Part shown: positions 1-57,107 of the stretch, one piece after another
How positions within the stretch are numbered: the stretch's first letter is position 1
Layout: each line of letters starts with the position of its first letter
NCBI GenBank assembly: GCA_951406725.2
Contig: OX597819.1
Coordinates: 3,472,001 to 3,536,000, forward strand
Direction of reading: 5' to 3'
Length of the DNA: 64,000 nucleotides
Source of the DNA: Octopus vulgaris
Lineage: Eukaryota
Translations under genes and position numbers: made by a program
The notes under the pieces: model-generated
Seen by the model: only the letters and a program-made list of their open reading frames with translations
What the model was told of the DNA's origin: nothing
Databases searched by the model: none

Positions 1-1026
1 GGGGAATTCATCGTGTAGCCAAAATATGAATAAAGAAATGAGAATTTATTAAGGTATAAAGGAAAGCTATTTACAGAAAACATACATATTAAAAAGCAAA
101 CACATTAATTCAGAAAAATAATGTTTCTCTCGAAAAAGAGGAAGTTGTACAGCGGAAGAAAATTTCTCTCTAATGCCAAATACAGCATTGAGATACAAGT
201 TATTGAACAAAAGAGATAAATTTTTTTATCTCTGAAAGAAATACATAGATATCATTGCTATCAGACGTCTATTCCAGCAAAGCAATTGTATCTAACAGCA
301 TTGATGGAATTTTTAAAAGTATCATAAATTTTATATGGTAATCTACATAGAAATGATTTATTTTAAGTCTCTGTTTTGTTGTAGCACTCAATATTCACGA
401 GTAGCTGATATCAAATAACGAATTATATTTGTGCAACTACGTAAACGTGATATCTTCACCAGCATGAAAACAAATATTACTCACACAAATGAAACAATTT
501 TGCATTTCACTTACTTAAGTTACACAACTAAATAGCAGAATCAAAACCTTCCAACACATTGCAATTACTTGATCTCACAATCTCTTAATTTCTTATGTGA
601 CTCTACATATGACCATCGACAAAATATGCATTACAAAGTTTTACCTCAGAAGCCAGAAAATGCTTCAGTATTGATCAGTTGCGGATATACACGTTACACA
701 CACCCGTCCTACACCACATCAAAAAGATAGTTAATCATCTGTTGGCAAATATTCATTCTTCTATTCAAGCAATCAGTCACATACACATGTTTTAACAGTA
801 ATATTTCTTTTGTTATTTTGTTCAATATTTGTAATGACTAGATAACACTACTGTCTATATTGTTTGTTTACATAGTAAAAAAAACAACAACAAAAAACAG
901 GTGTGTACCATTCTGTGCAAATTCCATAATATTCTGATAAATAATGGACTATTCTAATTTCTGATGCAACACAATTAGCATAAATACTTTGGATATGTTG
1001 TCCTGTGGAACAATGCTGAGATATAT

Positions 1027-1208
1027 ATTTCTTTATTACCCACAAGGGGCTAAACATAGAGGAGACAAACAAGGACATACAAAGGGATTAAGTCGATTAA
1101 ATCTACCCCATTGCATAACTGGTACTTATTTCATCGACCCCGAAAGGATGACAGGCAAAGTCGACCTCGGCGGAATTTGAACTCAGAACGTAACGGCAGA
1201 CGAAATAC
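1027..1208 (-). mobile_element. SINE family 1 (tRNA-headed, tail A): body and tail of a copy split by a Tx1 LINE
   Basis: Matches copies at 18.0-18.6, 23.7 and 43.1 kb. The head continues at 6508-6555. Outer TSD TGCTGAGATATAT at 1014-1026 and 6559-6571. Confidence 0.9.
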
Positions 1209-1489
1209 AAATTTCTTTATTGCCCACCGGGGGCCAAACATAGGTATGGACAGAACAACTGATGGGATCAGTGAAGCGATATGATTTTACATAAATGTGA
1301 CTTTAAAAATAAAATACAATATATAAAAAATCGAATGGAATAAACAATACAAAAACAATACAAATGAAGCGATGATCAGGTCACGCTCCGACCCCACAAG
1401 CCCCGATCTACCGCTGATACCTTTTTTTCCGGTCTATTCATAGACATGCTTCCATCTCTTTTGGAACGTACACTCCGGCAGACACCTCT

Positions 1490-4400
1490 TCTCCAGCCAC
1501 AGTTTCCTTTTCAAATAAAAAGAAAAAAAAAAGATCGTAAATTGTGACCAGTAATAAAGTTGTCTATCTTAATTCCTTTTATCCTAGTCTTCCATACTGC
1601 CTCTTTTGCTATTGCTACAACCACGAGAAAACAATTCTTACCTTCGTTCGTTAGAACTCCCGGTGGGTCAATTTTTATAATTGACTCAGTCGACAGCTGT
1701 ACTCTTCTTTCGCCGGACAACAGGCGTTCAGCATAAGCCCACATTTCAGTTATCTCCAGACACTGAACAATAGCGTGAGGGACGATTTCCCTGTCTCCCC
1801 CCCCCCGCATCTTGAACAGGTCGGCGACTGATGTTTACCATGTCTTGCGAGCTTATCCCAAACGGGCAAGGCACCTCTGTAGCTTTGTCAGGTTAAGGAC
1901 TTTTGGAAGTTGTCCAACGTTCTCAACCCGAATGTACGATGAAACAGGCTGTCCAGTTGAATAAATCCGAGACCTAGAGTCGACCCCAGGCCATCGTCGC
2001 ATTCAGACTCTACCAACCCACTATATAAAATCGTGTGGAACCCCCACCACTGGCGTTGTCCGAGCGCCAGAATAGCAAGAGGGCCTTACGGCACTCTTTA
2101 TGCCACTCACTCGACCTTGGTCTACAAGAACACCAGGCTTCCTGTTCGCAAAAACTCTTGATCTCAGGAAACATTTGTCTGGCCAGCGGAGACCACACCC
2201 GTTCACTATCCAGGAGAATCCAGAGGAGCCTCAGCCTTAACGCATGTCTGCGCACCATTAACCAAGGCATCCCTAAACCTCCCTTTAAATGCTATTGACA
2301 GCAGACAGAGCGTTTCACAAGTGGCGACCTGCCCTTCCACAAAAAGCGAAAGAGCTGTCTCTCCAACCTGATCAACCACGAATCCGGACAGGGCACGACG
2401 GTCAAGCGGTAGGTAATGACCGATGCGATATACACATTGGCCACCTCAGCCCTCCCTTTCAGGGATAGCCACCGCCAAGGCCAGGTCTTGACTACTGCAG
2501 CCACCCTGCTCAATACCTCCGTCCAGTTCTTCTCTATCTGGAGGCCTGGTCCAAACCAGACTCCCAGCAACTTAACCGATCCATCCGTCTAGCGCCCAAC
2601 AACGCTGTCTGAAGGCATCGACTTGCCAACCCAGGTGCCGAGCTGCAAGCCGACCGACTTTTCCCGGTTAATCTTTGCTCCTGCTACCTCCTCGTAAGCC
2701 TCAATAGTCTTACCCACTTCACGTAGGCGTGCTACTGTGGTTACGCTGATAGTGATATCATCCGCGAAAGCCGTAACAAACTCCTCTAGTCCTGGTTCTC
2801 TCGGGATGCTACTCAATCTTCGCAGTAATGGCTCGAGATCCATCACATACAAAAGTGGTGAAAACGGACATCCTTGATGAACCGAGCGTTTGATGCAGAA
2901 CGGCTTCGAAAGAAACCGTTCACCCGAACTATCGAGTCAATGTTGTGGTACAAAGCGATAAACCACCTGAGGAAGCCAAGATCCAGGCCAAACCGCACAA
3001 GCACAGTCGCTAGGTATCGATGGTCAACCCTATCAAAAGCTTTAGACTGGTCCAAATGCACCAATGCCCCACCTTTACCAGATTTATTACCAACCCTCTC
3101 TATGGTATAGCGAATAATATGGAGGGTATCCTGAATGGTTCTGCCTGGGATAGCGCATGTCTGTGCCTCCCCGACTATACCATTCGCGACACACGCCAAC
3201 CTTTTTGCTAGAACCTTGGCCAAAATCTTCAATTCTGCGTTTAACAGAGTGATGGGCTTGAAATTCTCTAGAACGTTCCCCTTGTCCGGGTCCTTTCTGA
3301 CCAACGTCACTACTCTCCGGCGCACAGATCTGGGGACAAACCCGTTCTTTTGCCAGTTCGCGTACACGTCAGCCAGTAGTTGCCCGAACAAGTCTGGCAT
3401 ACATTTATACAGCTCGTACGGAAGACCATCAAGTCCCGGCGACTTACCCGCTTTACAATCGGCCAAAGCCTCGAATCACCTCCTCAGGCGTGATTGGCCC
3501 TTCGCAAGACTCCGCATCCGACCCCGAAAAGCACGGCAGCCCGGCAAGAAAGTCCTCGAGGGCTCTCTCACCACCAGGACCGCCGTCACCCCCGAACAGC
3601 TGGGCGAAGTACTCCCGAAAGACCTCACACATTTTCTCGGGCTCGTTTACCAAGACACCATTTTGATTCGTTAAAGACTGAATAGAGGAACTATTTCCTT
3701 GCCGAGCTTCCACCACTCGCGCCCATCCAGCGGCCTTGACTTCTTCACTTCCCATTGCACGTAACTTAGCTCTGGCAATACTTCCCATGTGTTGGGCTTC
3801 AAGATGCTGGTTTAACTCCAGTCTGTTCACCCTCGCTTGGTCTGCATTACCAGTCCTCCAGGCTTCTTCTAGTTCCTTAACTAGACCATCTCCTATTCTA
3901 CGTCCCTTCTTAGCTAAACTTATGTTAAACCTAATAGACTCATATTTGATGGCTCTTTTTAGGGCGTACCACCATTTGTTATTAATGATGGTACCTGTTA
4001 ATTCTTTCTGTATTAACATCTTCATCCGCTTTCTGTACTCCTCAATCGCTAAAAGGGACGTATTGAGTTTCCAGTAGCCAGATCCCTGTCTATGCAACTT
4101 ATCTACCGTCAGTTTACAGGTAACCATTTTGTGGTCACTGTAGCTGACTAGAAAACACTGTGGACACACAACTATGCACTTATCTATTTCTCTAATTAAA
4201 ATCCTATCTGGATATGTTCTGGTAGTCCCGTCACTATTTGACCACATCCACTGTGGAGTGTTCGGGTGCTCCAACCTATATGGATCTGCTAGCTGAAATT
4301 GACTTAGCAGATCACGAAAGCCTGGGTTACATTTTCTGTTCATGTTCGAGCTCGAGCCAACACAATCTGTGTGTGCTGCACATATTGTGTTAAAGTCTCC

Positions 4401-4816
4401 TAACAATACTAGTGAATGCGACGTGGCTAGGAACTTTCCCAGGTCACGAAAATATTCAGTTTGCGGGCCAATAATGTTTGGTGCGTAAATAGCGACCAGA
4501 CTGATCGTCTTGCCACAACTGAATGTCAGGTCAAGAACGACCAACCTGCCTTCTGGGTCAGAAAAAAACAACTTTTTCTCGGCTACCCGGTTTCTTTTTA
4601 GTAGGACCAACACTCCACCCCACCTCCCGCCCAACTCGGAGAAACGTATTTCTCGTAGCCGTTCAGGAGGGGGAGCAGATATCTTGGCCCCTTCACCCGG
4701 GTTTCCGTTGCAACAATTACATCCAAATTTCTCGACTTTATGTCATTTAGAAAGCGTCCTTGCTGCCAGCTTGACATCAGACCACGAACATTTATACAAC
4801 CAATGTGGATAGACAT
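1490..4816 (-). pseudogene. Tx1 ORF2 (APE endonuclease + reverse transcriptase), broken into several frames
   Basis: MSIHIGCINVRGL start, LLGDFN, SDH, KSPGLDGLP, FKPITLLNAELKILAK, LDQSKAFDRVDH, AFADDI, LSLKGRA and C-x2-C...HAIVQC motifs in consecutive ORF fragments. Confidence 0.9.
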
Positions 4817-4831
4817 GACTTACCTGCTTAA

Positions 4832-6366
4832 TCAGGATTGTCCGATGGAGGTCGACGGTCTTGGGAAATAGATTTGTCTCACCACCGACACAGAATTATC
4901 AGGTGGAGGGGGAGTCTCCACCTTTTCCTTTTCTCGCGGGATCGGGGCTGGTAATCCATGAAATATAGACTTGTTAAAATCTAATTTCATTGACGATACT
5001 GTCTTTCGGTATTTGTTTTGTAAAATTCTATGAGTCTTATTTGAGACTTCATACAAGTCGTAACTTCACCAACCTCGCTAGTCTGAAATTAATTGCAACA
5101 CCCTTTCTATATATTGCACCTTATCTTCAAATTAATCTAAACTCTCGTAAAGTAAAGAGGCAAGAAATTTGGAACGGTGGAAGTAAGGTTCACCAACAAA
5201 GAAATCGCACAAAAGAACTCAGTATCTTTAGTGTATACGGCTATTATGCCTTTTTCTTCTTTTTCTCTTCTGGCAATCTTTTTTGGTCGTTGTTCTGTAG
5301 TAGTCGCCGCTCTCGGTAGAGTTGCTGGTTGTATTTTTCTTTTGTTTGTTGTTTTCTTCTCATCTTTTTCTTCTTCCTCTTTTTATTTTTTCTCCTCTTC
5401 CTCATTTTCCTTCGAATGTGACCTAATTGACCACATAAAAAACATCGAGGTTTTCGGCCCTCAACAAACACCACGAGGTTCTCCTCCCCTACCTCAATTG
5501 TCTCGGGAATTGCGTGAATTATTTTAGGGTCCGCTTGAATGAGGAGATTAATTGTTTGACTATCCCAGTGTTCGTTTTCGGTAGCGGTAGCCTGGAGGAG
5601 AGTAATTTTCTCTTCCTCTTTGATTAGGACTGCCGCCAACAACCACATAGGGTCCACTTCCGGTGGGACCCTTGTAATTTTAATTCTGGACGTTCTCATC
5701 CCCATATAGGTGGGGATGAGCTCCACGTCGTTCGTTTTCAGCGTTTCTACTGAGTTCTTTTGTGCGTTCCGAATTTCTTGCCTCTTCTCAGATAAACTAC
5801 GTCGCACCATATTGCCTTCAAGCATTTTTCTATCTTGTCTTCTATAATACTTTCAATTCTTCTTTTTTGTAAACAATAAGTTTTGAAAATTATTGTTTTT
5901 TGTTTTTCTTCTTGTAGTAACTTTTCCGGAGGTTGAATTTTGACAACGTTGTCATTTATTTTCATCATTTGGCCTATATTTCATAAAGTCACTCTTATTC
6001 ATCGAAAGCAGTCGGGTTCCACCCCCAGCTGCAAGCGCAAAACTTTTTTTTCCATTTTTTGGTTCTGTCTCGATGCTAGGTACATCAGTCATTCTTTTGG
6101 ACACAATGCCCTTGTTCTCTGGCAAATTCGGAAACTCTTCTGGTGAAAGTTCTGACGAGCTTTCAGACACATCTAAAAAAAAAATCAAATAAACTATCCA
6201 TTCTGCCATTCCTTCTTGTAACGGGGGAAACCCTTATTTCTCTGTTTGTAGTTGGCTCCTTGTCGGACATGTAATTCCTCCTCTCAACAGGAGAAACAAA
6301 CATTTCTACTCCAACGGTAGGCTCCTTGCTAGACGACATTCTTCCCCCCAACGGGGGAATGAACAA
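4832..6366 (-). pseudogene. Tx1 ORF1 (gag-like, CCHC zinc knuckle), frameshifted
   Basis: VEGRKPRCFLCGQLGHIRRK knuckle followed by a charged tract. Ends 16 nt before the ORF2 ATG. Start codon uncertain. Confidence 0.75.
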
Positions 6367-6507
6367 CGCGTGCTACTACAAGCACTAAGTGTTTTCAAAT
6401 GAAAACTCCAACAGTTAAGTAATTCAACAATTTAACAAATAACAACAGTTATTAACACCAAGAAACAGCAATTTTCACCACGAACACATGTGCGACAGAC
6501 GAAATAC

Positions 6508-6555
6508 GGCTACGCATTTCGTCCGGCGTACTAACGATTCTGCCAGCTCGCCGCC
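6508..6555 (-). mobile_element. SINE family 1 5' head (A-box part), other half of the split copy
   Basis: Minus-strand GGCGGCGAGCTGGCAGAATCGTTAG... matches heads at 18590-18639, 23840-23889 and 43330-43378. Confidence 0.9.
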
Positions 6556-6823
6556 AATTGCTGAGATATATGTATGACAGATATTTGAAGTGCATGACGA
6601 AAATTTTGACCTTAGAGTCAGAATATGGGAGAGAATTTTGTTAGGAATTTCGATTCTGACCGATTTCTATTAGAATATTTAACTTTTGATAAAGTGTTAA
6701 TTACATTACAAATCTTGAATTTAGACGTTAACTCAAAAATAGACGTGTGAAATGATTTTCGCTTGATAATTGTGTATCAGTAGACGTGTTTGAAGGCTTG
6801 AAATACAACAACAACAAACGCAG

Positions 6824-7150
6824 TGGAGGCGCAATGGCCCAGTGGTTAGGGCAGCGGACTCGCGTACGGAGGATCGCGGTTTCGATTACCAGACCGGGCG
6901 CTCCGGCAGGGGGTGGTGGCGACCCCTGTTGTACTCTTTCGCTCCAACTTTCTTCCTGTTTCTTGTTCCCGACTTCCTACGCAACCGCTGAGCCTGGATG
7001 CGCATTCATCCATCCATCGATGCTCTCGGTGTCAGGGGTTGACCTGCTTTCTCTTCTGCGTGTCTTACGAATAGCAAAGGACCACATTTCGGACTTCTAT
7101 CATCTTGCGAGCTCTGGGACGAAGACCGTTCGCTCAACAGCAACAACAAT
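6824..7150 (+). mobile_element. SINE family 3 (tRNA-Arg-like head, CAA-rich tail)
   Basis: GGAGGCGCAATGGCCCAGTGGTTAGGGCAGCGGACTCGC...GGTTTCGATT head with A/B boxes; same head at 39.3 and 40.0 kb. Confidence 0.8.
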
Positions 7151-8400: not shown

Positions 8401-9189
8401 AGAAAATAATGCTGGAATAATAATCCTCACATAATTTAATCTTTAAGATAATTTCATTAGACAAAATATCTAATAAAATGCAGAAGGCTTCCCAAATTTG
8501 AATGTAATTCTTGCTCAAAGGTTATGTTAATTATACCAATTTCGTTCAAGCTCCAGTAAGTGCTGGTTTAAACGGATCTTTATAAAATTTAACATCTTTT
8601 ATTTACTTAAGCATTCATTTAAGCAAATATTGCAGAAAATATATCAACTTTTGAGGATTGATTCTGCATGTAACCGTATGATCGATGCATTTTCTATAAA
8701 AACTAAAGGAATCAAATGTTCTCATTGATATCAGCAGCCGTTAAACGCAAATTGCTTAAAAAAATGTATTACTTTACGAGAGTTTAGATTAATTTGAAGA
8801 TAAGGTGCAATATATAGAAAGGGTGTTGCAATTAATTTCAGACTAGCGAGGTTGGTGAAGTTCAAAACTGAAAGCATAGATAAGGGAAGAGTTCCAAAGG
8901 GATCCGCGTGAGTATATGCGAATTGATTTTATATTACAGAGGAAAGGTTGACGAATCTGGTAGAACAAGCGGAGCAGCAAAGGTTAAAATAATTTTAGAC
9001 GATATAATGGACGCAAACAGAAACAATAATCATAATATATGTATGAAGGTTTTTGCAATCAGACAAATAGCAACTTTTAAAAGTATATGCCTGGAGGGTA
9101 TATACCTGGTGCAAAGTTTTAGATAAGTTAGATATACATTAACGAAAGTTGTAACAGAAGTTTTTACAGAGAGAGAACTTGTCCACCGT

Positions 9190-18007: not shown

Positions 18008-18640
18008 TATTTCTTTATTGCCCACAAGGAGCTAAACATAGAGGGGATAAACAAGGACAGACAAATGGATTATGTCGATTACATCGACCCCAGTGCGAAA
18101 CTGGTACTTATTTAATCGACCCCGAAAGGATGCAAGGCAAAGTCGACCTCGGCGGAATTTGAACTCAGAACGTAGCGGCAGGCGAAATACCTATTTCTTT
18201 ACTACCCGCAAGGGGCTAAATACAGAGAGGACAAACAAGGACAGACAAACAGATTAAGTCGATTATATCGACCCCAGTGCGTAACTGGTACTTGTTTAAT
18301 CGACCCCGAAAGGATGAAAGGCAAAGTCGACCTCGGTGGAATTTGAACTCAGAACGTAACGGCAGACAAAATACGGCTACGCATTTCGCCCGGTGTGCTA
18401 TCGTTTCTTATTTCTTTATTGCCCACAAGGGGCTAAACATAGAGGGGACAAACAAGGACAGACAAAGGGATTAAGTCGATAACATCGACCCCAGTACGGA
18501 ACTGGTACTTAATTTATCGACCCCGAAAGGATGAAAGGCAAAGTTGACCTCGGCGGAATTTGAACACAGAACGTAACGGCAGACGAAATACCTGTAAGCA
18601 TTTCGTCCAGCGTGCTAACGTTTCTGCCAGCTCGCCGCCT
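18008..18640 (-). mobile_element. SINE family 1 head-to-tail trimer
   Basis: Three units with junctions at about 18190 and 18408; a single 18-bp TSD CATAACTGCAATTGTATA at 17990-18007 and 18642-18659. Confidence 0.9.
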
Positions 18641-31139: not shown

Positions 31140-33270
31140 CGTGGATGATGGGCTCCAAGCAAGGAGGATGGTGCGCATAAAGATAGCTAGGATACTACCA
31201 AAAGTAAACCTGTGGTGGATTCTCGCAGCGATCGTTTTGGAAAGGAGCAACAGTCTCCTATAAGCCAAAAGGACATGACGTGAAAATTTGTCTGGCACTA
31301 GTGTGGAGGAATGCCTCCATATTCAACCAGGGACTATTCACAAGATCTCCAGGAAAGGAAGAATTACATGTCGCATTGGAGGGTAGAAGGCCACGGTACC
31401 ACCTGTGTGGAGCGACAGTATAATTGAGCGACAGAGAACCATGGCAGTCTCTTACTGCCAACACCAGGACCTCAAAAGCACCAACAACGGCATCGTTATC
31501 AACAAGAACAGCAAAACCAAGAAACTAAGGAAAATCACCAACAACACCAGCAACAGATGCATCAGCTTTACTCCCCTTAACAGCAGAAGAGATAATACAT
31601 AAGAACACACTCAGCATTTTAGGCCTATAACTCTGCTAAACGCAGATTATAAGATTTTGGCCAAGGTATTAGCCAAGAGATTTGCGCTTGCCGTCGGTAA
31701 GCTGGTCGGTAACTTGCAAACATGCGCTATTCCGAACTGATCTATCCACGACAACCTCCACCTCACGCGCTACATCATAGAGAGGGTAGGGAAGGAAGCT
31801 GACATGGGTGGGGCCCTGATCAATTTTGATCAATCAACAGTTTTTGACAGGGTCCACCATCAATACATGGAGGTTGTACTCGCAGCGGTCAGTTTCGGTC
31901 CTGTTTTCAGAGGCTGGATCACTGCAATATTTAACGGCATCTGTTCTGTGGTCAAAGTAAACGGCCATCTTTCGGAATCGTTTAGCATCGCTCGCTCTTT
32001 CCGTAAAGGATGCCCACTCTCTCCCCTTCTGTACGTGCTGGTTCCGGAATCATTACTGAGGAAGTTGGATATTTCGAGGGACATCTACGTGATCTAGGAT
32101 GCGGAAGGTTCGTGTCGATTTATGAGGACGACGTCACCGAAATAGTGTCGGAAAGCTCGGAAATCGAGATGATCGGTTTTACTTTAAGAGAGTACAAAGC
32201 GGTCACAGTAGCAAAAAGGAATCGGGACAAGTCGGTGGGCCTGCAATTCGTCACCTGGAGAGGCGGATCCATGCCGACCGACAGCGTGGTAGGGCGCTGG
32301 ACAGAAGGACCAGTTAAATTGGCCGGTGTCTGGTTTGGTCCGGGCGTCCAGGTAGACAAGAACTGGGGGGAGGTGACGAGCAAGGTAGCCAATCTCACCT
32401 AGAAATGGGCAGAGACGAAGCTGTCCCTGAAAGATCGGACAGAGGTGGTAAACGCGTACATCACTTCCGTAATCTACTATCGCCTGACCGTCGTCCATTG
32501 CCCTGTTTCATGGCTGACCACGAAACAGGGCAATCTGGAACGCTTGCTCTTCCGCTTTCTGTAGAGGGTTCGTGTTCCACTCATCAGACGGTCCATCTAC
32601 TGTCAACAGCCACTGAGTAGAGAACTGGGCATGCCGTAGCTAATGTGGTTGCTGTTTGTCAAGCAGAATTTTGCCCAGCTCGTCTCATTGACAGAGCTAC
32701 AGTCCTGCATCAAACGTAGACCAAGAAAGGTACTTGGCACCTGGAGTGTCGGCAAGTGCTCACAGCTATTTGGCAGTCGGGCAACGCGGTCGGTGGAAGT
32801 TCTACCATGGAGTTCTGTAGGGGATTAGTGGTGGGCAAGAGCAACGATGTCCTCGGGGAAACTCTGGGCGTTGGTTGGAAGGGATCAATTAACTAGTCTT
32901 TTCCGGAGAACTTTCGGGCTGGAGCTTATGGATAACTTCCAGAAATCCCTGGCCTGGCAGTGCTACCGGTTCGAGACAAGCTCTGCAGACACAGAAGTGC
33001 TGTCAGACAGACCTGTCCGAGGTGTGCGCAGGGCGACGAAACCGCCCTGCACGCACTCGTCCAGTGTCTTTGCATTACTGACTTGTGGAGCTTTGTCGAA
33101 CAGCTGTTATCACGTGTAGGACGGATTCGGTTATCAGCCGAGTCCATCATGAAGATCGCCCCGCCACCTTCCTTTGGTCGAGAAGAAAAGGCAGTTTTCC
33201 TCTGTCTGGTGGCTATAGCAAAGGAAATAGTGTGGTGAACGAGATTGAAATGACTGAAGACGGATACTTT
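31140..33270 (+). mobile_element. Second Tx1-clade LINE, internally deleted and decayed
   Basis: ORF1 remnants (VRIKIARILPKVNLWWILAAI, EELHVALEGRRPR) and ORF2 remnants (FRPITLLNADYKILAK, GCPLSPLLY, YEDDV, CPRC..ETALHALVQC) homologous to the element at 1.2-6.5 kb. Confidence 0.88.
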
Positions 33271-33330
33271 CTGACTTCAAATTCCACCGAAGTCGACTTT
33301 GCCTTTCATTCTTGTGGCAAAAATTTGGAA
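33269..33330 (+). mobile_element. SINE family 1 fragment abutting the Tx1 3' side
   Basis: TTCTGACTTCAAATTCCACCGAAGTCGACTTTGCCTTTCATTC matches the B-box and core of family 1. Confidence 0.75.
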
Positions 33331-42980: not shown

Positions 42981-43378
42981 CCTTACTACTATAGGCACAA
43001 CGCCTGAATTTTTTTAGGGGATGGGGAAAGTCGATCACATTGACCCCAGTGTCCAACCGGTACTTATTCCATCGACCCCGAGAGGATGAAAGGCAAACTC
43101 GACCTTGGTGGAATTTGAACTCAGAACGCAGCGACAGGCAAAATACCTATTTCTTTACTACCCACAAGGGGCTAAACACAGGGAGGACAGACAAGGACAG
43201 ACAAACGGATTAAGTCGATTATATCGACCCCAGTGCGTAACTGGTGCTTAATTTATCGACCCCGAAAGGATGAAAGGCAAAGTCGACCTCGGCGGAATTT
43301 GAACTCAGAACGTAACGGCAGACGAAATACCGCTAAGCATTTCGCCCGGCGCGCTAACGATTCTGCCAGCTCGCCGCC
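42981..43378 (-). mobile_element. SINE family 1 dimer (tail-B-like unit + tail-A unit)
   Basis: Junction GGCAAAATAC|CTATTTCTTTAC at about 43146; 20-bp TSD TTAAACTGAARCGTAATAAT at 42961-42980 and 43379-43398. Confidence 0.88.
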
Positions 43379-53753: not shown

Positions 53754-53794
<41 letters not shown>

Positions 53795-53821
53795 AAATAA
53801 AAACATGATGTCAAGGATTCA

Positions 53822-53899
53822 GCGGTACATATGTTTCGGGCCTTTATTAGACAGATTTATAACAATGCATAATGTATGTCTGTGGCCTTCTTCAGCCGC
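53822..53899 (-). ncRNA. Type I minimal hammerhead ribozyme (PLE terminus, copy 1)
   Basis: Reverse complement of 56870-56947. Confidence 0.7.
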
Positions 53900-55847
53900 G
53901 CACAACAACTTCCGCAAGGACATGTATTACATCAAAAATTCTTGGTTGGGGATGCAAATCCTCTCATTCGCGTACGACATAATGCGGCAACAGCATAGAA
54001 TTGAAGCGTCCATCTCTTTCTTCTCTCAATGTAGAATGAGGAAATTTGGATGTTGAAGTAATGTAAATAAATTGATAAATAAATACATATATAGACGTGA
54101 AGGGACCTGGTAATAAGAGTAAATAGGGGTAAAGATGGACGAAGGATAAAAAATATATAAAAAGTGTAAGTATAGAAAAAGATATAAAGAGATATAAGGA
54201 GATATAAAGGGGATATAAAGAATATAAAAAAATATAAATGAATATAAAGGTATAAAGTTAAAATAGAAATAAAAATAAAAATAGGAATAAAAAGGATAAA
54301 AAATGTAAAAAAATATATGGATAAGGGATGTATAGTGGTTACGGACCAAACATGGTGGTCAGGAAAATGACAAAATTTAGTTGTAGAAGTTTTGGGTGTC
54401 AATAAATCAACAGGGGCGTCTGGGGGGGCCTAGTGTATTGTAAATCAGAGCTGTTGAGCAGTTAATCTAGTTCCTTGAATTAAGTGGTCATCTTGTACAT
54501 ACATACCAGCATGGATACATACACCCATATACACGCGCACATATACGCGCGCATACACAGCTCCAAGTATATAAGCATACATACGTACTCACGTGTAAAC
54601 ATATACAGAAACACATATACACCCACACACATGCGCATATATACATACATACAACAGAATATGCGCATATATACACGGACATTATACGTGTACATATATA
54701 TATACATATATACACACACACGCACATACACATATACATATACACATACACATATGCATACACATACGCACATGTATACCTATACATACATACGCATATA
54801 CACACACCCATATATACATACGTACGTCCATCCTTACATACACATACACAGATGCCCACACATACAGGTTTAGATATAAGATATTAGAAGATGTATATAA
54901 GAACGCATGTAAAGAATCACGCACTCACGTCTGCACGTACACGCACACACGGCTGTGTGTCCATATGTGCGTGTACATATACACTTACATACACACACAG
55001 ACATACGCGCGTATAGGTATAGCTATAAGATATTAAAAGATGTATACAAATATGTGTAAACATATGCATATAAGAAATCTGCGAAAACATGTAAAAAAAC
55101 ATGTAAAAAAACATGTAAGAAATTAAAAAAAATTATTAAAGAAAATTATTAAAGAAAGTTATTAAAGAAGAGTAACCGGGTATGCACATCCAGACGTAGA
55201 TGTTTACTCGTACATATGTACACATATGTATACGTATACATACGTACACGGACGCGCGTATAATCATAAAGCGGATCCATAGATCAGTAAATAAGGGATA
55301 AGCAAAAAATAGACATATATAGAGATATAAAGCGATAAGTTAGGGGTAAGAATGAGGGTAAGAATAAAAATTAGAAATAAAAGTAAGAAATACAATATAA
55401 AATAAGAAATACAATATAAAAGTTAGAAATAAAATATAAAAATTATAAGAACTATAAGAATTAAAATAAGGAATGAAAATAAAAATAAGAATAAAGGTAA
55501 AGCGAAATAGAATAGGATAAAGTAAAATAAAAATATAATCGGGTAAAGCTTAACATGAGATGAAGGGAAAAAAAGGTGGTTGAAGTGTAAAGTTAAAGGT
55601 GTGTGCTAAAGGTGACCACGTAGGGGCGGGCGGGGGGAACTGAAAATTGGAAGGGTGGGAAGTGGAGTTTGGCAGTGTGCGCTCAACATCCAAGTTAGGA
55701 ATGTGAAAAGGTATAGGTATAGGGAAATAAAGAGTCTAGATAGGAAGAATGTAGGTGTAGGAGAAGAAATATATAGGGAAAAAAAACATATATGGGAGAC
55801 AAAATGTGTATATATAGGAGGAAAATGCAGGGAAATATATATGCACA

Positions 55848-55849
<2 letters not shown>

Positions 55850-55913
<64 letters not shown>

Positions 55914-56067
55914 TATACGTACACATATATGTATATACATATACATATATATATACATATACGTACACATATATGTATATACATATACATATATATATAT
56001 ACATATACGTACACATATATGTATATACATATACATATATATATATACATATACGTACACATATATG

Positions 56068-56107
<40 letters not shown>

Positions 56108-56165
56108 CGTACACATATATGTATATACATATATACATATATATATACACATATACACGCACATA
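55850..56165. repeat. (CA)n plus an approximately 44-54 bp TA/CA-derived minisatellite, 5 copies
   Basis: CATATACGTACACATATATGTATATA recurs five times. Confidence 0.9.
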
Positions 56166-56869
56166 TAGGAAAGCGGGATGCGCTGGAGCCGACAGGTTGC
56201 ACCGGCTGGGAGGAAATTGCATGGGGGAGTTGGTATAATAGCCTAAGCTTTGTAGTATTTGAAAGTATTAATAAGTTTGTGTATACAGGATAGTTTGAAC
56301 TCTGACCTTTTGTTAATAAGATTGTGTTTGTCTTTGAATTTCAAGATATTCAGGAGTTCTACACAACATAGTTGGCATCCTGCTCTATTATTTAAATAAG
56401 GTGCAGCTGATCCGATGATGGACCACCTGAGTTTGAAACCTATGCATTTTATTTCTATTTTAACTTTATACATTTATATTCATTTATATTTTTTTATATT
56501 CTTTATATCCCCTTTATATCTCCTTATATCTCCTTATATCTCTTTATATCTTTATACTCTACATTTTTATATTTTTCTATACTTACACTTTTTATATATT
56601 TTTTATCCTTCGTCCTGAATTCTCGCCCCTCCATCTTTACCCCTATTTACTCTTATTACCAGGTCCCTTCACGTCTATATATGTATTTATTTATCAATTT
56701 ATTTACATTACTTCAACATCCAAATTTCCTCATTCTACATTGAGAGAAGAAAGAGATGGACGCTTCAATTCTATGCTGTTGCCGCATTATGTCGTACGCG
56801 AATGAGAGGATTTGCATCCCCAACCAAGAATTTTTGATGTAACACATGTCCTTGCGGAAGTTGTTGTGC

Positions 56870-56947
56870 GCGGCTGAAGAAGGCCACAGACATACATTAT
56901 GCATTGTTATAAATCTGTCTAATAAAGGCCCGAAACATATGTACCGC
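56870..56947 (+). ncRNA. Type I minimal hammerhead ribozyme (PLE terminus, copy 2)
   Basis: gcgg-CTGAAGA-aggcc...ggccc-GAAA-catatg-TA-ccgc: intact core, palindromic ACATATGT stem III, predicted cleavage after A56943. Confidence 0.72.
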
Positions 56948-57107
56948 TGAATCCTTGACATCATGTTTTTATTTTGATCAATTTAGTCCACCACCTACAC
57001 CACCAAACGGTATACACAGGTGCTTATAATTATCAAGTACTCACCCCGAATTTCTATATATATATATATATATACAAATATATATATATGTGCATATATC
57101 TATCTGA

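Follow-up and report, generated by a model that had tools for sequence, protein, structure and literature searches.

Crocodilian Tx1-Mar long interspersed nuclear elements (LINEs) together with SINEU short interspersed nuclear elements (SINEs) have a common insertion hotspot inside Mariner-N4_AMi (Kojima 2015, PMC4494074). The same report lists Tx1L of Xenopus, which targets Tx1D, Keno, which targets U2 genes, and Kibi and Koshi, which target microsatellites. Here we describe a LINE of this kind in a 64,000-nucleotide (nt) stretch of the Octopus vulgaris genome (GCA_951406725.2, contig OX597819.1, positions 3,472,001 to 3,536,000; hereafter the window). It is inserted in the tRNA-like head of a SINE whose 3' tail resembles its own and, to judge from sequence comparison, this SINE likely serves both as landing pad and as passenger of the enzyme of this LINE lineage.

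The Tx1-Mar/SINEU pair is the closest precedent among the systems described in the sources we consulted. In both cases a Tx1-type LINE and a SINE hit one hotspot within a transposon, tandem SINE insertions sandwich a duplication, the partner is deduced from common targeting, and hitchhiking is excluded by truncated copies (PMC4494074). The crocodilian target is a third element and the SINE heads there derive from U1/U2, whereas the octopus target is the SINE's own tRNA-like head; the octopus pair differs also in having a common 3' stem-loop tail. Tx1L, Keno, Kibi and Koshi are likewise L1-group elements with an APE endonuclease and a sequence-specific multicopy target (PMC4494074), but, unlike the octopus SINE, the targets described for them are not retroposons able to depend on the same enzyme. 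Stringent pairs such as that of zebrafish ZfL2 share with the octopus pair a common 3' stem-loop tail without poly(A) (PMC4176376, PMC3747384, relevant passages); unlike in ZfL2, the octopus loop differs between the SINE and the window LINE, and nesting is site-specific.

Octopus tRNA-CORE SINEs have been named OR1 and OR2 (PMC4824008, PMC4758252). Like the window SINE, they are very abundant and tRNA-like, have a common head and body and alternative tails, and occur in an octopus genome; the passages on OR1/OR2 do not speak of a partner LINE or of nesting. L1-Tx1 and SINE families also appear in a 2026 octopus repeat annotation, which in the part concerned gives neither targets nor nesting (PMC13282606). 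No description of a LINE that targets its partner SINE, or of this octopus system, turned up in the literature searched; these families may already be described in Repbase, in subscription papers (Ohshima and Okada 1994; Kojima and Fujiwara 2004) or in the repeat library of PMC13282606.

The landing site of the LINE

The locus consists of the following features (box positions in SINE numbering are taken from the uninterrupted copy at 43149-43378):

1014..1026, no strand, 3' copy of the host SINE's outer target-site duplication, 13 bp, identical to 6559..6571
1027..1209, minus, host SINE nt 48-230, comprising the duplicated target word, the B box, the body and tail A, ~91% identical to the uninterrupted copy 43149-43378
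1027..1082, minus, SINE tail A with a predicted stem-loop, loop CTTGT (folding and alignment)
1173..1182, minus, B-box-like motif GTTCAAATTC, SINE nt 75-84 (from sequence)
1197..1209, no strand, 3' copy of the inner target-site duplication, 13 bp, the two copies differing by one CpG-type mismatch
1210..6495, minus, full-length decayed L1/Tx1-type LINE of 5.3 kb (similarity to the intact-ORF2 copy L145 and Pfam matches)
1210..1260, minus, LINE 3' tail with a predicted stem-loop (loop CCGGT) and AATAAA, without poly(A), found behind all 88 genomic motif matches
6496..6508, no strand, 5' copy of the inner target-site duplication, which also forms the right arm of a hairpin of 11-13 bp within the SINE head
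6496..6555, minus, host SINE head nt 1-60, of which nt 36-60 may come from the LINE RNA
6535..6545, minus, A-box-like motif TGGCAGAATCG, SINE nt 11-21 (from sequence)
6559..6571, no strand, 5' copy of the host SINE's outer target-site duplication, 13 bp, paired with 1014..1026

Along the minus strand the order is thus outer duplication (6559-6571), SINE head (6555-6496), LINE (6495-1210), SINE nt 48-230 (1209-1027) and outer duplication (1014-1026). The window contains exactly two occurrences of the outer duplication TGCTGAGATATAT, starting at 1014 and 6559, and both SINE halves are together ~90% identical over 230 nt to the uninterrupted window copies 43149-43378 and 18410-18639. The LINE separates the A-box-like and B-box-like motifs of a 230-nt SINE, in the same orientation, as the original prediction had read from the nested duplications. 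The inner word that it quoted, CAGACGAAATAC, is indeed present at 1197 and 6496, although the real duplication is 13 bp, and it is this pair (1197-1209 and 6496-6508) that sets the extent of the LINE at 1210-6495 on the minus strand. The string given there as SINE tail A is that of copy 18410-18639, not of the host SINE.

We searched the 2.8-Gb genome with queries that contained LINE sequence only. With a 292-nt 3' query (348 candidates, of which 40 were scored, giving 30 loci), SINE nt 48/49 came next in 27 of the 29 other copies. A 316-nt 5' query (40 of 67 candidates scored, 30 loci returned) found SINE sequence upstream in 29/29 other copies: the head and the target word in 27, the tail and the target word in one, and a head with a junction deletion in one. 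A target-free 28-nt motif from the 3' untranslated region (UTR) gave 88 exact matches (control 0), and all 88 flanks were retrieved. The insertion lies at SINE nt 48/49 in 76 of them (74 by automatic call, L099 and L095 by eye), at a site whose chance rate, estimated from 520 kb of random DNA, is ~4e-4 per insertion. Five copies stop at the target word ahead of a related ORF1-bearing derivative, with one junction on three contigs, and seven are off-target, six of these beginning with (C/G)GTA. This concentration at one sequence exceeds the >20% of flanks proposed for a target-specific family in PMC4494074. Since exact-motif matches favour young copies, the on-site fraction of old copies may be lower; L107 and L108 are a single tandem duplication. 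In contigs assembled from four DNA sequencing runs and compared with a young copy, joints between the tail and nt 48 were present in 4/4 runs, and the contigs break at the SINE. That the LINE lands at one base, in one orientation, inside an abundant SINE is on these sequence grounds established, and the mostly unrelated flanks that would have spoken against a landing pad did not occur.

The sequence behind the five older copies was considered as a second LINE target and rejected: it is the 5' end of a derivative consisting of ORF1 and a short ORF2 scrap (L291-L295), and the arrangement is probably one copied composite.

It is scarcely credible that the original target was a true tRNA gene, with the SINE head as a mimic. 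Tx1-clade elements do target multicopy RNA genes (PMC4494074), and the site used by LINE and SINE lies within an anticodon-arm-like hairpin of the SINE head. None of the 88 flanks, however, resembled anything besides SINE body, the related element or unique DNA, in a comparison that left host tRNA genes outside.

Apparent targeting could also arise from a few founder events if SINE::LINE composites or SINE dimers had been amplified as units. The ages of the copies make this highly improbable. The young subfamily, with 50 motif matches of which 38 are full length, has a median non-CpG divergence of 0.6%, about eight times less than its hosts (heads 5.8%, 68/1169; bodies 4.6%, 133/2868), which are as diverged as random SINEs (41/560 and 81/1441). 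The hosts differ in tail type and body, and outer duplications, all distinct, were found for 17 of the 25 testable ones. Full-length young copies show the 13-bp duplication, and a SINE head precedes 9/10 young 5'-truncated copies, whose breakpoints differ. Younger LINEs in older, independent SINEs, together with these truncated copies, refute hitchhiking for the young subfamily, and adjacent SINE units that differ like random pairs speak against amplified dimers.

The older subfamily (~5% divergence, G at the junction, a different 5' UTR and ORF1) is less uniform in this respect. Its 10 near-full-length copies all start after a SINE head, or a tail, plus the target word, but 14/18 of its 5'-truncated copies lack an upstream SINE head and do not show a convincing duplication, which weighs against general targeting and in favour of co-amplification. 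A duplication test for read-through composites in these 14 gave no convincing match either way, and they may reflect either erosion or read-through co-transposition. The single LINE-to-derivative junction in five matches on three contigs, the near-identity of long SINE arrays, and the duplications L107/L108 and L301-L303 would also fit amplification as units.

The SINE, its nesting and its mobiliser

Random sampling (52 random 10-kb stretches, 520 kb, from 60 drawn) yielded 82 SINE matches and 26 tail-A ends, which extrapolates to a copy number of ~10^5. The SINE does spread target sites for the LINE, as was originally proposed, but with only 88 exact LINE matches such sites are far from limiting. 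The element has the features of a tRNA-derived SINE: it is short and interspersed, carries A and B boxes and is flanked by target-site duplications. ARAGORN and Rfam found no tRNA or other family in it, so the term tRNA head is based only on the box motifs and on folding, the head forming hairpins with z=-3.6 to -3.9. OR1 and OR2 differ in their tails, and the window SINE may resemble them. Two further loci of the window contain nested SINEs:

18009..18639, minus, a nest of three SINE units, joined at SINE nt 15 and nt 48, with a single outer duplication
43028..43378, minus, an older tail-B SINE into which a tail-A SINE has inserted at nt 48

SINEs with tail B, such as that at window 43028-43146, are older, at ~11% divergence, and their tail ends in AGTAGAAAAGAAT or ATT repeats.

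Nesting of the SINE in itself is common. Tail-A ends are followed by SINE nt 45-48 in 7 of the 26 random copies (six by BLAST adjacency, one by eye) and by nt 15 in one, and the exact 31-nt junction of tail and target occurs 19,477 times (control 0). In 13/15 arrays with a tail-B host, the inserted unit is the younger of the two (P=0.001); pairs of tail A in tail A have no age order (7 vs 9). Adjacent A-A units differ by a median of 7.7%, as much as random pairs, and by <=2% in only 1/33, and short arrays are thus mostly independent events. No double-headed nest was present in 41 arrays. Four long arrays chosen among the loci with this junction consist largely of near-identical units; serial insertion was therefore rejected for long arrays in favour of local expansion. 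Such mini-satellites (L304-L307) have units of 184-187 nt, with at least 10 near-identical units in L304, and two of them were seeded in a tail-B SINE. A second nesting hotspot lies at SINE nt 14/15 (AGAAAC) and is used by SINEs and by a LINE lineage, Z, described below; it accounts for 10/148 tail-A ends and is seen at window 18408-18410, L154 and L233.

Which enzyme copies the SINE can be approached through its tail. The LINE 3' end is identical to SINE tails at 29/33 nt, a similarity already noticed in the original prediction. The target-free 3' UTR motif is followed by this tail in 88/88 matches; the tail therefore belongs to the LINE, and segment 1209-1260 is part of it, not a separate SINE remnant. 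We consider it probable, on sequence evidence, that nesting tail-A SINEs are mobilised by the lineage of the window LINE. The shared nick site makes this partnership likely, as does the age match with the older LINE subfamily, which (~5%) resembles the SINE in age (3-5%) and has the same G at its junction (AGGT in 43/55 SINE junctions). The earlier claim that this LINE mobilises the SINE thus keeps its support in the common tail, the nick site and the age of the older subfamily; since the SINE loop equals that of other lineages, mobilisation by exactly this LINE is graded likely only.

Several observations weigh against this partnership. The same tail hairpin recurs in sister LINE lineages, at least three of them (Z, W and Y), and the SINE loop (CTTGT) and last bases (AAAGAAATA) are nearer to theirs than to those of the window lineage (CCGGT, AAAGAAATT). 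Unlike the members of a stringent pair, the SINE and the window lineage thus do not have identical loops, and zebrafish L2 reads the tail loop strictly, according to the relevant passage of PMC4176376. SINE-like tail features occur in the window lineage only at the duplicated locus L301-L303 and in the young copy L164. Covariation in the hairpin is weak: 96.5% of cells are paired with one compensatory pair, and 34/500 shuffles score as high. The 19,477 junctions overcount insertion events, since long arrays are near-identical local expansions. Finally, the first bases of most solitary SINE insertions are ATAT, GATA or AGAAA, an indication that several mobilisers are at work.

The loop and the last bases would suit an arrangement in which the LINE targets the SINE without copying it. 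A sister L1/Tx1 element would bind the SINE tail, and nesting would come about through pairing of read-through RNA with the nicked target or through an extinct sister using the same site. Lineage Z ends in AAAGAAATAAGAAA, prefers AGAAA and has 2/20 copies at the second nesting site, nt 14/15; the SINE also lacks a T4 run that would stop RNA polymerase III before the next unit. Against this arrangement, none of 60 sister copies (the best 20 each of Z, W and Y) lies at SINE nt 48/49. Searches with exact patterns for a sister-type tail ending in ATAGGTA gave one match, a SINE, and those for a sister LINE with the SINE junction gave only SINEs and the one duplicated, truncated locus L301-L303. Moreover, solitary SINEs duplicate pre-existing GGTA sites as the window lineage does (5 of the 13 with a detectable duplication begin GGTA). 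On balance we hold copying by a sister element or by an RNA-guided route to be unlikely. Among the sister copies L231-L290, the three lineages with the tail hairpin end at different words, namely AGAAA, GGATG, and CAACTGAAT or CAAC, followed by other repeats.

The 5' junction and a proposed mechanism

In 37 full-length young copies, mismatches in the SINE head fall from 8.3% (101/1220) at nt 3-35 to 1.4% (13/912) at nt 36-60. The G43/C48 head is present in 4/4 hosts with old-type bodies and in 0/57 free old-type SINEs, and a derived head variant common to three older copies is absent from 128 free SINEs (0/128). The truncated copy L169 retains the head-body linkage of its own host. Full-length LINEs thus appear to overwrite ~25 nt of upstream target, their RNA carrying those nt, by analogy with what is proposed for R2 (PMC3774820). 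R2 RNA starts at most 36 nt upstream in 28S rRNA, and there too uniform 5' junctions are explained by upstream target sequence on the complementary DNA (cDNA) annealing to the target (PMC3774820). The systems differ in that R2 has a restriction-like endonuclease and a hepatitis delta virus-like ribozyme (PMC3774820), whereas the octopus LINE is of APE type, has no Rfam match, and its RNA start is deduced. One consideration runs counter to overwriting: the invariance of nt 36-60 could come partly from target choice, since 5/6 informative truncated copies also lie in the G43/C48-type variant.

We propose that the ORF2 protein would bind the 3' stem-loop of LINE or SINE RNA and that its APE domain would nick the bottom strand at (C/G)GTAT and prime reverse transcription. 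A few read-through RNA bases probably help priming, because the last base of each subfamily matches its target variant. LINE RNA would probably start ~25 nt upstream, within a SINE head, so that the cDNA end could anneal to and overwrite host nt 36-60, giving uniform 5' junctions. A SINE cDNA would merge its own head with that of the host, leaving one head followed by 184-nt units, some of which may later expand locally into mini-satellites. A LINE insertion parts the A and B boxes of the host by 5.3 kb, whereas a SINE insertion retains a promoter-like arrangement.

Taken as a whole, this would form a closed loop in which the SINE is copied by the LINE enzyme, is its main genomic target, and donates the head for the 5' end of the LINE RNA. 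We put this forward tentatively, as a possibility that we rate below even chances. If true, RNA tags at both ends would pass on target identity, and the LINE subfamilies would follow the variants of the SINE head, first G48 and then C48. Sisters that share the tail would divide the genome into different targets, and self-nesting would seed SINE-derived satellites.

The LINE family and its significance

The LINE of the window carries two decayed reading frames:

1414..4816, minus, open reading frame (ORF) 2 with APE endonuclease, reverse transcriptase (RT) and C-terminal zinc finger, in at least 6 frame segments, 3' end approximate (tblastn with an intact ORF2)
4830..6339, minus, broken ORF1 with one CCHC knuckle and, near 5156-5287, a short patch in inverted orientation; 3' end approximate

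Its identity to copy L145 is 92% across 3.9 kb and 85% across the 1.3 kb at the 5' end. Its ORF2 fragments match Exo_endo_phos and RVT_1, and its ORF1 fragment matches zf-CCHC weakly (Pfam). Intact relatives encode an ORF1 of 508 aa with a CCHC knuckle and an ORF2 of 1133 aa with APE, RT and zf-RVT; the 508-aa ORF1 of L098 exceeds the zf-CCHC cut-off, and RVT_1, Exo_endo_phos and zf-RVT are matched in the intact ORF2 of L145. ORF2 is intact in 3/38 full-length young copies (L145, L156 and L159), and the motifs predicted to be catalytic in the APE endonuclease are present in all three. At one place these three ORF2s have GDSN, whereas L1 and the window copy have GDFN there. Another young copy, L097, has an intact ORF1 and has lost most of ORF2. 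Within the window LINE, a 94-nt piece (5062-5155) that adjoins the inverted patch in ORF1 has a 100% identical inverted copy at 8769-8862, 2.2 kb outside the element.

An APE-RT-zinc-finger ORF2 and a separate CCHC ORF1 place the window LINE, by its predicted proteins, in the L1 group (L1/Tx1). The closest solved structure to ORF2 is human L1 ORF2p (E=8e-64), ahead of R2 (E=4e-20). The closest named protein is a hypothetical protein of Argonauta hians (63%), and ORF1 matched P0007 at only E=0.018. Protein searches, cluster look-ups and the Atlas returned L1-group relatives and no entry named Tx1, and none of the 40 rows of our RT tree is a named Tx1 element; with no named Tx1 reference among the compared sequences, Tx1 is a plausible label.

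Other repeats surround the locus. An older fragment of a sister L1/Tx1 ORF2 lies at 31612-33328 (plus strand; 43-57% identical in amino acids), accompanied by a SINE piece in inverted orientation at 33265-33313. The tRNA-like head (GGCGCAATGGCCCAGTGGTTAGGGCAGCGGACTCG...) of another repeat is found at 6825-6900, 250 nt past the element. At 53784-56985, inverted arms of 356 nt, 99% complementary, enclose a microsatellite-rich interior, possibly a young DNA transposon.

The system extends known target-specific Tx1 behaviour, since the LINE here inserts into its own probable non-autonomous partner. Repeat libraries built automatically will join LINE and SINE ends in it. The young copies with intact ORF2 and the same-tail sisters with different targets form a natural panel for weighing endonuclease against RNA:DNA pairing in the specificity of APE-type LINEs. 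A LINE that targets its own partner SINE ties the copy numbers of host and parasite together and shapes thousands of nested repeats in the octopus genome.

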